From Escherichia virus KFS-EC, in sequence record MH560358: a DNA stretch of 64,000 bases. One strand, written 5' to 3'. The position numbers and the translations under genes are program-made. Positions 57,141 to 63,241 of this stretch are shown piece after piece; positions within the stretch are counted from its first letter, which is position 1, and every line of letters starts with the position of its first letter. The notes beneath the pieces were generated by a model that did not search any database, was not told where the DNA came from, and saw only the letters and a list, made by a program, of their open reading frames with translations.

Positions 57141-57917
57141 TTACACGCGAGCACCGTAGATCGTGCCTACTTTATCCCAGCGTGGAGCATTACCAGTAAC
57201 GGCTTTACCAGCAGCACCACCGTTATATTCTGTACCGTTACCCTGAGTATTACATCTTCCTCCAGCAGCACCAACGTTACCGCCCGCACCGCCTGTATAT
57301 GCACTAAGAGACCCCTTACCAACAGATCCTTTACCCGGAGCGGAAATGGAGCCAGCGGTTGCACCAGAACCCATATTAGAGGAAGACCCGGCAGCACCGA
57401 ATGGGCAACCACCGCCGCCACCAAATACTAGTCGACCCCTGTTACCGCCGCCACCGCCGCCACCGCCGCCAGCGATAGCACCGTTATTTGTAATTCGTAG
57501 ACGTGTACCGATAGCGTTATTGATTGCGTTTCCACCAGCAGCGCCAGCAGCGTTACTACCACCATTACCCCCACGTCCGTAGACAGTCACACCGGAGTTA
57601 ATGATCAATGTTACATATTCGTTTGTTAACGAGCTAGGGAAGTCAAGACAAGGAACGCCAGTAGATTGGGAAACAATATTACCTGTGATAGTAATTACTA
57701 CCGGAGTAGATCCTTGTGCTTTCATCCAGTTAATAAGAGTGTCTTTATTGTAAGAGTTACTAGCACCAATGCTATAATGAATCTCTTTAGAGCGTCCGAC
57801 CATTGCCGACATATACGCCGGACGACCTAAGCGTACAGCTTGCATTGCGGCGCTCATCCACCGTTGACCAGTCTCGGACACAGCAGATGATCCTACCCAT
57901 CCAGAAGATATTGCCAT
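57141..57917 (-). CDS. glycine-rich gp38-type tail-fiber adhesin-like protein
   Basis: 258 aa; N-terminus GWVGSSAVSETGQRWMS...GRSKEI resembles the gp37-binding region of T2-type gp38 as recalled; then YGRGGNGGSN..GAAGGN, NNGAIAGGGGGGGGG and further Gly-rich blocks separated by short variable segments; GAGGA RBS. Confidence 0.6.
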   Translation of the reverse strand: MAISSGWVGSSAVSETGQRWMSAAMQAVRLGRPAYMSAMVGRSKEIHYSIGASNSYNKDTLINWMKAQGSTPVVITITGNIVSQSTGVPCLDFPSSLTNEYVTLIINSGVTVYGRGGNGGSNAAGAAGGNAINNAIGTRLRITNNGAIAGGGGGGGGGNRGRLVFGGGGGCPFGAAGSSSNMGSGATAGSISAPGKGSVGKGSLSAYTGGAGGNVGAAGGRCNTQGNGTEYNGGAAGKAVTGNAPRWDKVGTIYGARV

Positions 57918-59505: not shown

Positions 59506-59521
59506 CACCTAAAAACGAAAA

Positions 59522-59541
59522 AGCCACCCTTTCGGATGGCT
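59522..59541. terminator. bidirectional-looking hairpin terminator
   Basis: AGCCA ccctttcgga TGGCT hairpin with A-run upstream and T-run downstream. Confidence 0.5.
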
Positions 59542-59775
59542 TTTTGATTATATTTTATTCACGTCCATTTGTATAGTAGTGTTTGAATCGACCTTTGCTA
59601 AACTAGTTAAACATAGTAACCAATTCACCATCCCTTTCCAATGATAACACTTCCTCGTCTTAGACGGGTCTTCTGATTCGGCAGTAATTGAACACGCGAA
59701 AGTATGAGGAAGCCAAATAGTTGTGTTGATGCTAGTATTCTTTTACTTCTGGTATGTATCCCAATGTGACTAACA

Positions 59776-60174
59776 TTAAGCCAATCGAGTGAGTTTATAA
59801 ATTGTTTTAAAGCATAGAGCTTTGATATCGTCTAAAACGCTCTGTAACGAGCTATCAACATCATTATAAATCTCACTAGCCATTTGCGTTAACTCTTGCA
59901 AATAGGCAATTTCGCTCATCTCCTTGCGGACGACCAACGTTGGCTGATAACGACCAGTGATCCCAATATTGGTTTCAGTGAAATCATCAACCAATTCTTG
60001 CATTTCAAGATAGAACTCTTCTAGAGCCTTATGTTTTGCATAAGATCCAGGACCAGTTACTCCAAAATGCGCAGAATGCATATAAGTAACACTCATCAGA
60101 CATTCACCGATAAAGCGGTCAACTTTATTAGCTTTCCCCTCTTCGGACGTCTTTAGAAAATCAATGAATTTCAT
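59776..60174 (-). CDS. ferritin/Dps-like protein
   Basis: 132 aa from ATG 60174 (GGAG RBS); MHSAHFGVTGPGSYAKHKALEEFYLEMQELVDDF resembles the Dps HW.VKGP.F..LHE.FEE.Y helix; start overlaps stop of upstream gene by 14 nt. Confidence 0.45.
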   Translation of the reverse strand: MKFIDFLKTSEEGKANKVDRFIGECLMSVTYMHSAHFGVTGPGSYAKHKALEEFYLEMQELVDDFTETNIGITGRYQPTLVVRKEMSEIAYLQELTQMASEIYNDVDSSLQSVLDDIKALCFKTIYKLTRLA

Positions 60175-60463
60175 GTTCTCTATTCTCCATATTATGCAAC
60201 ATAACAAACTGTTGTGCGGCATATTCCCCCATAATAAAACACTGCTTAGAATCCATACATTTACTACGAGCATACATCTTCATAATATGGGCATGAAATT
60301 TCTGGCTGGTTTCAATGGAAGGAGATATTTTGTTTACATATACTATCATTGCACCGTCGAAATAATCAGTAAAGTCACCAGTTGGATCATATTGATCAGC
60401 ACTGACACTTCCGACCGCAGTCAAGCATATTGCCGCTGTTAGAGTTTTACGAATAAATGACAT
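60161..60463 (-). CDS. secreted/periplasmic hypothetical protein
   Basis: 100 aa; signal peptide MSFIRKTLTAAICLTAVGSVSA. Confidence 0.5.
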   Translation of the reverse strand: MSFIRKTLTAAICLTAVGSVSADQYDPTGDFTDYFDGAMIVYVNKISPSIETSQKFHAHIMKMYARSKCMDSKQCFIMGEYAAQQFVMLHNMENREHEIH

Positions 60464-60531
60464 AAGTCATTCCCCCAGATTTAAAATATTCAGTTATATT
60501 TATAATCTGGGGCTTTATTTATGATTAACTC

Positions 60532-61128
60532 TTAGTTGGTAGTGCCATCAATAAAATGTTTACGGCACACAGAAACATATTTATCCTCTGCACCAACTTC
60601 GATTTGAGCACCATCGCGAATAACATTACCCTCTTTATCTACACGAAGGACCATTGTTGCTTTCTTGCCACAATGACAAATACCCTTCATTTCGACCAGT
60701 TTATCAGCAAATGCCATCAATGCCGCAGATCCTTCAAATAGATTGCCCTGAAAGTCAGTGCGAAGGCCATAGCACAGTACAGGGATATTTGCATCATCAA
60801 CAAGCGCACACAAGCCTAAAACATGCTCTTTAGTCATAAATTGGGCTTCATCTACAAATACAGCATCAGGACGCCAGCGATCTGGTCTACGCTTACCTAA
60901 CGATTCACGATAAACCAAGTCGAAAAGATCATCCGATTCAGTGAAGGTGATCGCTGGAGCACTTAGACCAATTCGGGAAACAACTTCACTTTCTGAATCT
61001 CGATTATCAATCGCTGGCTTAAGAATTAATACTCGCATATCACGTTCGGTATAGTTATAAGCACTTTGTAACAGAGAAGTTGATTTGCCAGCGTTCATAG
61101 ATGCATAGTAGAAATATAATTGCGCCAT
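60532..61128 (-). CDS. tk: thymidine kinase
   Basis: 198 aa (T4 193); P-loop MNAGKST, VDEAQF, C-terminal zinc-binding CHCG...C. Confidence 0.92.
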   Translation of the reverse strand: MAQLYFYYASMNAGKSTSLLQSAYNYTERDMRVLILKPAIDNRDSESEVVSRIGLSAPAITFTESDDLFDLVYRESLGKRRPDRWRPDAVFVDEAQFMTKEHVLGLCALVDDANIPVLCYGLRTDFQGNLFEGSAALMAFADKLVEMKGICHCGKKATMVLRVDKEGNVIRDGAQIEVGAEDKYVSVCRKHFIDGTTN

Positions 61129-61656: not shown

Positions 61657-61859
61657 TTACATTTAGGGCAATGCGGTTCTTTAATATAATACCCGTCTGT
61701 CTTTGGAACACTAACAGGAGCGGTTTTTATATTGTATTCAATGAAACAACGAAAACAAGTTACGTTTTCTACAGACTGACGTTTCACCCAATCACCGGAA
61801 TATAGATCATTTTTATTTGTCATATTCAACCACCACAATGTTAATGTCTGGAGTAGCAA
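61629..61859 (-). CDS. hypothetical zinc-ribbon protein
   Basis: 76-aa ORF; CFRC...CPKCKC. Confidence 0.45.
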   Translation of the reverse strand: MLLQTLTLWWLNMTNKNDLYSGDWVKRQSVENVTCFRCFIEYNIKTAPVSVPKTDGYYIKEPHCPKCKCRLYWSHL

Positions 61860-62268
61860 TATTAATGATCTCTTCTACACATTCCCACTCAAGGCCACCG
61901 ATACCGCAACCGATTTTAGGAATATAGAAAGGCTGTATAGCACCCTCAAAAACATCATTGAGAGACTCAAATCCTTTCAGGATAGCACCATATTCAGCAT
62001 TTGGACCCGGTCGGAATTGGGTATAGAGATTCACCCCGCACCAGTTATAACCATTAACTTGATGCGTCCAGACACTAAACCCACCCAGCTTTTCGACCTT
62101 ACCGCGAGAAGTTTGCTTGTCAATCTCTAACGCTTGCGGGAACTCTTTCGCGATCTTCGCAGCAATACCAGCGCCCATAGTATGAAAACAATTACAACCA
62201 TGAATTAAATGACCGTTTCCTTGTTTAAACAGGGCGATGAGATCGCCCTTTACAGTATCAATAATCAT
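61813..62268 (-). CDS. macro-domain protein (ADP-ribose binding/processing)
   Basis: 151 aa; HGCNC...MGAGIA...G.....GG matches the macro-domain N-terminal signature. Confidence 0.6.
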   Translation of the reverse strand: MIIDTVKGDLIALFKQGNGHLIHGCNCFHTMGAGIAAKIAKEFPQALEIDKQTSRGKVEKLGGFSVWTHQVNGYNWCGVNLYTQFRPGPNAEYGAILKGFESLNDVFEGAIQPFYIPKIGCGIGGLEWECVEEIINIATPDINIVVVEYDK

Positions 62269-62650: not shown

Positions 62651-63241
62651 TCAATAGCGTTTAGTCTTAAGAATGCCTTTACTCTTTAGATGGTTAGCCT
62701 TTTTTAGTACGTCATCAGCATAACCTAATCCGGCTTTATAGTTCCATCCAGCATTGTAAGAAGCTAGCGCGAGTCTGATATTACCGTTTCGAATATCCAG
62801 CCAGTATGCTAACTCATCCATCGCGTAGAATGCAGAAACCTCGCGATTCATGATAAAGTTGATAGTCTGGCGATCACTCATTTTAACACCGCGCTTTGCA
62901 TTTTTCGCTTTCACCGTTTTAAGGTAATTTTGAAATAATCCATAAGCATGATGATTTTTCTTTGGTGCTAAGTTTGCACCCGCGCTTGATTCTTGCCATG
63001 CGATACCCGCCAGGATGTGACCTAAACCCTTTCCGTTATAGCGAATATTCGGATGGTACTTTTTCAACTTACCGCTTTTCTCGAATTGCTCGCCGTATTG
63101 ATAGGCGAAATGTAAATTATCTAGTTGGTGTGCTGTAAAGTTGTCTATCGGCGCTTTTTTGATCGGTGCGCTAGTCGATGCGTGTGTAGCACCAACGGCT
63201 AGTGACAGACTCAATACTATCGCTTTTAGAACTTTTAACAT
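62651..63241 (-). CDS. secreted lytic transglycosylase (SLT domain)
   Basis: 196 aa; signal peptide MLKVLKAIVLSLSLAVGATHA; SLT motifs GIAWQESS, GLFQ, AYNAG. Confidence 0.7.
   Translation of the reverse strand: MLKVLKAIVLSLSLAVGATHASTSAPIKKAPIDNFTAHQLDNLHFAYQYGEQFEKSGKLKKYHPNIRYNGKGLGHILAGIAWQESSAGANLAPKKNHHAYGLFQNYLKTVKAKNAKRGVKMSDRQTINFIMNREVSAFYAMDELAYWLDIRNGNIRLALASYNAGWNYKAGLGYADDVLKKANHLKSKGILKTKRY

Follow-up and report, generated by a model that had tools for sequence, protein, structure and literature searches.

The 64,000-nucleotide (nt) stretch of DNA from Escherichia virus KFS-EC that was analysed here (sequence record MH560358; the whole stretch is referred to as the window) carries a gene, rI.-1, whose 132-amino-acid (aa) product is very probably a true but distant homolog of the Dps mini-ferritins and probably retains their metal-binding site, as judged from its sequence. 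Comparison with related genomes identifies the gene as the Krischvirus (RB49-type) ortholog of bacteriophage T4 rI.-1, and profile comparisons identify the RI.-1 family as a compact, phage-specific offshoot of the Dps mini-ferritins. The gene itself was already known, and database labels, together with a single Phyre2 match of a distant homolog, had hinted at a likeness to ferritin. The new findings are the statistical connection with Dps, a ferroxidase signature that is near-invariant throughout the family, including T4, and the size of the family relative to that of canonical phage Dps. The two features on which these conclusions depend are as follows.

59776..60174, minus strand: rI.-1 coding sequence (CDS), 132 aa plus stop; predicted Dps-like four-helix-bundle protein, Pfam DUF5856 / phrog_858
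59974..60078, minus strand: putative Dps-type ferroxidase motif H33-x2-H36-x11-H48-x14-D63-x3-E67, codons 33-67; from alignment with Dps of E. coli and of the Protein Data Bank (PDB)

An initial annotation of this DNA had described a 132-aa open reading frame (ORF) encoding a ferritin- or Dps-like protein at this position. The ORF was confirmed, and was shown to lie on the minus strand; its coordinates take in the stop codon and its product reads MKFIDF...KLTRLA. Given the matches to DUF5856 and phrog_858, the ORF is a real gene and not a chance reading frame. The peptide MHSAHFGVTGPGSYAKHKALEEFYLEMQELVDDF, which had been likened to the first ferroxidase helix of Dps, corresponds to residues 32-65 of the product. 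An alternative 165-aa reading from the ATG at 60273 was rejected; it sits within the rI gene, and the homologs all begin at or near MKF/MQ.

The relationship to Dps was supported by several searches. When the rI.-1 product was compared with all PDB chains using phmmer, the matches were almost exclusively to Dps proteins, the best being 2d5k (E 3.4e-5), Dlp-2 (4.3e-5), Dlp-1 (6.6e-5) and 1n1q (7e-5), with the ligand residues aligned. Profile-profile comparison was carried out with hhalign, using a 51-member alignment of the RI.-1 family and an alignment of six canonical Dps proteins (E. coli Dps and the Dps of Streptomyces, Cronobacter, Aeromonas, Lactobacillus and Clostridium phages). It gave a probability of 92.2% and an E-value of 5.9e-7 over 116 columns, which spanned residues 13-128 of the rI.-1 product and 29-163 of E. 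coli Dps. With E. coli Dps as the only target the family gave a weak match (5% probability), and significance was reached only with the six-member alignment. Matches in the PHROG database were reciprocal: the rI.-1 product matched phrog_3636 (E 8.5e-7), the family to which E. coli Dps (E 3.5e-27) and canonical phage Dps belong, and two canonical phage Dps proteins matched phrog_858 at approximately 4e-5. The NCBIfam matches were to Dps models only (NF006975 at 15.9 bits, cut-off 114; NF052461 at 12.7 bits, cut-off 300). These weak matches were obtained for the rI.-1 product and not for the T4-type or Ackermannviridae forms, since the rI.-1 product has kept the spacing between the two histidines and the adjoining loop of Dps. 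The profile of the broad family likewise matched the PDB less strongly (E 0.003) than did the single rI.-1 sequence, since the GPG loop is absent from most members.

The initial annotation had proposed a search for a four-helix bundle with ferroxidase ligands as its check. The AlphaFold2 (AF2) model, which had a predicted local distance difference test (pLDDT) score of 93.8 and a predicted template modelling (pTM) score of 0.88, contained four long helices; helical segments were predicted at residues 3-11, 17-37, 44-73, 88-103 and 108-130, giving a ferritin-like four-helix-bundle fold. Foldseek ranked Dps first, with E-values that were not significant. The ferroxidase residues also were found. 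The motif runs from the end of helix A through an AB loop containing GPG and into helix B, and H36, H48, D63 and E67 aligned with H51, H63, D78 and E82 of E. coli Dps, with identical spacing (12/15/4). In E. coli Dps these four residues are the established inter-subunit ferroxidase ligands.

Conservation of the site was assessed in 150 representatives of clusters formed at 50% identity. H36 was kept in 149 representatives, H48 in 148, D63 in 148 and E67 in 149 (98.7-99.3%); Y126 was invariant (150), Y55 was kept in 145, and D115 in 138, with Glu in a further seven. All four ligands were present in the T4-type RI.-1 protein (RB14) and in the homologs from the Ackermannviridae. The near-invariance of the ligands argues that the metal site is the selected function. 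An intra-subunit di-iron site of the ferritin, bacterioferritin or DpsL type (E / ExxH / E / ExxH) was excluded because the sequence has no ExxH and no His after residue 48, and hence no His in helices C and D.

Several results weighed against the assignment to Dps. None of the cut-offs of the curated Dps and ferritin models was reached by the rI.-1 product, and PF00210, against which E. coli Dps scores 80.4 bits, was unreported even at E≤10; Pfam places the product in a separate family, DUF5856. The BC helix, which in Dps lies on the two-fold axis, was missing; residues 74-87 of the AF2 model form a loop, and hhalign placed a 10-residue deletion relative to Dps at that position. The fifth residue of the Dps site (D67 in E. 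coli, E52 here) was variable across the family. In 260 of the 272 aligned members, furthermore, the spacing between the two histidines was 9 and not 12, so the geometry of the site in most members may differ from that in Dps. The Dps spacing of 12, together with the loop V-x-G-P-x-[FY], was confined to the Krischvirus clade (9/272), where it is due to a three-residue GPG insert that represents either ancestral retention, with repeated loss elsewhere, or secondary gain. The Trp beside the first His is replaced by Phe in the rI.-1 product and mostly by Leu across the family.

The family is large. The rI.-1 product scored 76.7 bits against DUF5856 (PF19174; cut-off 34.6, E 3e-21) and matched phrog_858 over residues 1-131 (E 3.4e-43). 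By tblastn, members were found in 1,422 of 50,697 phage records, among them Straboviridae of many genera, with Tequatrovirus (rI.-1), and Ackermannviridae, and a profile search recovered 1,908 clusters (50% identity) at E≤1e-3 and 281 at E≤1e-10. The corresponding tblastn search with E. coli Dps detected canonical Dps in 131 of the 50,697 records; no Straboviridae or Ackermannviridae were among the matches listed, save for two Aeromonas records in the organism tally. The RI.-1 family is therefore approximately ten times commoner than canonical Dps in phage records. A survey published in 2021 had considered Dps-like enzymes to be rare in phages, and gave a few phages of Lactobacillus and certain gut phages as the sole cases in which they had been seen (Benler et al., 2021).

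A scan of 185,579 cellular species genomes with two close-family patterns matched a single locus, on a 178-kb contig (NZ_JBHSCL010000010.1) of an assembly of the marine Flavobacterium 'Flagellimonas marina'. The contig was 97% identical to Enterobacter phage EcL22g across 8.4 kb and almost certainly represents a T4-like phage genome that entered the bacterial assembly by contamination or co-sequencing.

In some members the DUF5856 domain was embedded within proteins of 200-1,934 aa, and a second domain was recognised in these multi-domain relatives by Pfam or PHROGs only once (DUF3008). One architecture recurred in metagenomic sequences, consisting of an N-terminal DUF5856 domain, a conserved linker and a variable C-terminal region of 100-200 aa that was unmatched in Pfam and PHROG (P0142, P0146, P0149, P0155, P0184, P0217, P0261 and P0266; loci L006 and L008). 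Two viral-contig contexts of the N-terminal-fusion type gave no informative neighbours. Other members formed part of larger proteins (687-1,934 aa) or had Lys-rich N-terminal extensions (P0132, P0135). A literature search found no biochemical study of DUF5856 proteins, and the name DUF5856 was not met in any paper of the library searched.

The rI.-1 gene lies in a minus-strand gene run with the following features.

60161..60463, minus strand: rI antiholin gene, 100 aa, secreted protein of the N-terminal signal-anchor-release type; Pfam PF24205 Antiholin, E 1.6e-23
60161..60174, minus strand: 14-nt overlap of the rI stop and the rI.-1 start, read directly from the sequence
60532..61128, minus strand: thymidine kinase gene (tk), the conserved upstream neighbour; Pfam TK, E 1.1e-51
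60497..60504, minus strand: candidate T4-type late promoter box TATAAATA, 34 nt upstream of the rI ATG
60473..60512, minus strand: predicted RNA hairpin around the late promoter box, its 3' arm overlapping the rI Shine-Dalgarno sequence GGGGGA
60185..60188, minus strand: GGAG, a possible rI.-1 Shine-Dalgarno sequence within the rI CDS, 10 nt before the ATG, read directly
59518..59545, minus strand: putative intrinsic terminator closing the tk-rI-rI.-1 unit, with a 12-bp stem and a T run, 230 nt past the rI.-1 stop

The upstream gene, which the initial annotation had described as encoding a secreted 100-aa protein, corresponds to the T4-type RI antiholin; its product also matched phrog_1246 ('lysis inhibition'), and the gene is named rI in related phages. 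The 14-nt overlap that had been claimed between the two genes was exact, with the rI TGA at 60161-60163 and the rI.-1 ATG at 60172-60174. The same 14-nt overlap was present in GEC-3S; the junction is a 4-nt overlap in RB14 (T4-type) and a 10-nt gap in CfP1. The gene order tk-rI-rI.-1 was common to GEC-3S, JSE, RB14 and CfP1, and in JSE the ORF is annotated as rI.-1. Krischvirus RB49 and Shigella phage Sf20 share the DNA around rI.-1 at 100% identity, and approximately 50 other Krischvirus genomes share it at 98-99%. The same minus-strand run continues upstream of tk with genes for a macro-domain protein (61813-62268; Pfam Macro, E 6e-7; phrog_335, 'phosphatase') and an SLT-like transglycosylase with a signal peptide (62651-63241; phrog_600). 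Some 1.9 kb downstream of rI.-1 the minus strand encodes a 258-aa protein with long Gly-rich runs (57141-57917); the GEC-3S annotation names it a distal long tail fiber assembly catalyst (gp38-type adhesin).

The late promoter box TATAAATA occurred as a single exact copy in the window, compared to 5.8 copies expected by chance, and was located in the loop region of the hairpin. The 66-nt stretch that contains this hairpin had a folding energy of -24.2 kcal/mol (z -5.85), and none of 200 shuffled sequences folded as well. A second small hairpin (60455-60472) covers the rI AUG. In T4, genes e and soc are the model for ribosome-binding sites that are masked in early read-through transcripts and free in late ones, and by analogy the rI hairpins look like a device of this type that restricts translation to late transcripts. 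The rI ribosome-binding site would be masked in early read-through transcripts and unmasked in late transcripts that initiate inside the hairpin. Because the GGAG is distant and the gene overlaps rI, translation of rI.-1 is probably coupled to that of rI and mainly late. The T4 rI.1-rI-rI.-1 operon is served by one late promoter and one distant early promoter (Golec et al., PMC2962797).

GEC-3S carries an annotated terminator at the place equivalent to the terminator listed above. The 230 nt between the rI.-1 stop and the terminator (59546-59775) contained no convincing ORF, the largest being 27 aa, and had no Rfam match; the z-score of this stretch was only -2.65 with the terminator included. 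A sigma-70-like promoter was noted at 59575-59547, just ahead of the terminator.

On balance we favour a function for the rI.-1 product in the handling of iron and peroxide, as an inter-subunit metal (ferroxidase) protein that is expressed late, a proposal drawn from the alignments and gene arrangement described above. The protein would dimerise around a two-fold axis in the manner of Dps, and each of the two metal sites of the dimer would combine H36 and H48 from one subunit with D63 and E67 from its partner. Fe(II) would bind at these sites and be oxidised by H2O2 or O2, possibly with storage of the product in a higher-order cage. Fenton chemistry would be lowered late in infection, limiting damage driven by iron and peroxide. 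With host transcription shut off, the host Dps and OxyR response would not be inducible. The benefit would be greatest in lysis-inhibited cells, which need to stay energised for hours; such a need would account for expression alongside the RI antiholin and for the slightly longer lysis inhibition in T4 when rI.-1 is overexpressed, and any effect on lysis timing would be indirect. This specific physiological role is doubtful, and is put forward tentatively.

Published data on T4 bear on a different explanation, in which RI.-1 is a dedicated lysis-inhibition accessory. In this view (the Golec model) it makes protein-protein contacts with the T holin and RIII, and its Dps fold is either a mere scaffold or a sensor of redox state or metal through which the timing of lysis is adjusted. 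Overexpression of T4 rI.-1 from a plasmid slightly delayed the collapse of lysis inhibition (PMC2962797; PMC6832632). It also strengthened the effect of RIII and relieved RIII toxicity, and the overexpression effect was absent in an rIII mutant (PMC2962797); this dependence on RIII tells against our proposal, since it is not predicted by a pure antioxidant model. The conserved proximity of rI and rI.-1 across Straboviridae genera is in keeping with an accessory role. The effects were slight, however, and were obtained by plasmid overexpression, and a 2019 review still regarded the role of RI.-1 as undefined (PMC6832632). Four near-invariant metal ligands are hard to square with a pure scaffold. 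Moreover, the family occurs where T, RI, RI.1 and RIII are absent, namely in the jumbo phage RaK2 (PMC3622015) and in the Ackermannviridae, which favours a general biochemical role over that of a dedicated lysis regulator. We consider a dedicated accessory rather unlikely.

The Ackermannviridae homologs raise another alternative, that of a virion-associated iron- or ferritin-like protein that is built into the particle, packaged in it or tightly bound to it. It might supply metal for a structural part, serve in entry (the 'Ferrojan horse') or be co-injected and protect the incoming DNA. LIMEstone1 ORF078, which is 42% identical to the rI.-1 product (E 1e-29), was reported as a 'confirmed structural protein' by mass spectrometry (MS; 13.15 kDa, 28% coverage, three peptides), with a late promoter annotated upstream; according to the authors, there is a structural counterpart in ViI for each of the 12 unknown structural proteins of LIMEstone1. 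Sajous1 gp217 (43% identical, E 1e-29) was represented by 10 spectra in CsCl-purified virions and gave a Phyre2 match to 'Ferritin' at 96.7% (PMC10892097). Its authors proposed a Ferrojan-horse role in entry; plating of Vi01-like phage was unchanged on tonB and feoB host mutants, a result that does not favour such a role. The presence of these homologs in purified virions is unexplained by the intracellular model that we prefer. Within the Ackermannviridae the gene is clustered with a few structural genes whose products MS has confirmed, and a Foldseek search of BFVD returned Dps-like domains fused to 'prohead protease' proteins, with weak E-values.

All of this evidence comes from the Ackermannviridae and none from T4-like phages; to our knowledge RI.-1 is not among the T4 virion proteins, and in the Straboviridae the gene sits in the non-structural tk-rI region. 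The same MS preparations held ligase, PhoH, gp44 and terminase, so carry-over does occur, and the density of a cage loaded with iron could make it band together with phage in CsCl. Inspection of the N-terminus revealed no evident T4-type capsid-targeting sequence or gp21 cleavage site: there was no L/I-x-E motif, and the virion-associated Ackermannviridae forms are without that N-terminal segment. A virion role for the rI.-1 product seems unlikely. The broader idea that large virulent myoviruses carry mini-ferritin cages in or on their virions, which is suggested by MS of three Ackermannviridae, and co-express them with the antiholin in T-even-like phages, is quite improbable. If true, a phage would transfer iron or an antioxidant cage from one host to the next and would couple the choice between holding and releasing lysis to the iron and peroxide state of the cell, in a manner functionally reminiscent of the ferritin-like cargo of HK97-fold encapsulins.

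A DNA-binding protein or transcription regulator is suggested by the PHROG, RefSeq and JGI labels. The RefSeq-style annotation of rI.-1 is 'starvation-inducible transcriptional regulator', a label that was rejected as being inherited from the name Dps and not from any test; the other label in use is 'DNA-binding ferritin-like protein'. The Lys-rich N-terminal extensions of the distant members P0132 and P0135 also point in this direction. The rI.-1 product itself, however, is acidic (pI 5.03; 14 K+R versus 20 D+E), as are the T4-type (pI 5.57) and Ackermannviridae-type (5.35) proteins. It has no Lys-rich tail, its N-terminal 20 residues containing 5 K+R versus 4 D+E, and neither Pfam nor NCBIfam recognised a DNA-binding domain. 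A Lys-rich tail is not a defining feature of all Dps. We regard a DNA-binding or regulatory function as highly improbable, and protection of DNA through binding as the weaker half of the initial suggestion that such a protein could protect DNA or handle iron and oxidative stress.

The rI.-1 gene belongs to the classic r-gene region of the most studied phage, T4, and its biochemistry has so far been unassigned; the sole study, in 2010, reported small overexpression effects on lysis inhibition. Recognition of its product as a probable Dps derivative with a ferroxidase signature would give this accessory gene a testable biochemical function. If the protein is active, large enterobacterial myoviruses would commonly manage iron and peroxide as one of their late functions. 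The assignment also links two literatures that apparently do not cite each other, on T4 lysis inhibition and on the virion 'ferritin' of Vi01-like phages.

The nearest known system is T4 RI.-1. The Tequatrovirus protein from RB14 was 33% identical to the rI.-1 product over its full length (E 8e-25), matched the same family models and has the same four ligands, and its gene is placed immediately after rI, which it overlaps, and downstream of tk. It differs in its His-His spacing, which is 9 in the T4-type protein and 12 here by virtue of the GPG insert, and in the extent of the overlap with rI (4 nt versus 14 nt). The phage studied here, moreover, has no rI.1 gene between tk and rI.

The Ackermannviridae proteins annotated as 'unknown structural protein' or 'ferritin' (LIMEstone1 ORF078, Sajous1 gp217 and dinky_85) belong to the same family and have the same ligands. 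In contrast to the rI.-1 product they are 117 aa long and lack both the GPG insert and the short N-terminal helix, and their genes are not beside rI; they lie among MS-confirmed structural genes, near a primase gene. As noted above, these homologs have been detected in purified virions.

Canonical phage Dps (phrog_3636) is found in Streptomyces BE-cluster, Lactobacillus plantarum and Clostridium phages, in Grimontviridae and in 'Gratiaviridae' (PMC8008677), and has been proposed to limit oxidative damage in infection. It shares with the RI.-1 family its membership of the phage-encoded Dps superfamily, as indicated by the weak reciprocal PHROG matches to phrog_858, and differs in being of the PF00210 type, 133-159 aa in length, with Trp beside the first His. 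In two Grimontviridae, Cronobacter phage GAP52 and Aeromonas phage BUCT695, the canonical Dps-like gene was immediately upstream of nrdD (anaerobic ribonucleotide reductase), an arrangement suggestive of a connection between phage Dps and nucleotide metabolism that depends on iron or radicals.

The closest cellular proteins are the bacterial Dps mini-ferritins, which include E. coli Dps, Firmicute Dps/Dlp proteins (such as PDB 2d5k, 1jig, 1ji5 and 1n1q) and HP-NAP. The RI.-1 proteins are shorter than these (132 aa here and 113 aa in some members), and the family is carried by virulent phages and was absent from cellular genomes in the single scan made. The likeness extends beyond the metal ligands: a conserved Tyr lies seven residues after the second His, and Y126, the aromatic residue of helix D, aligned with W160 of Dps.

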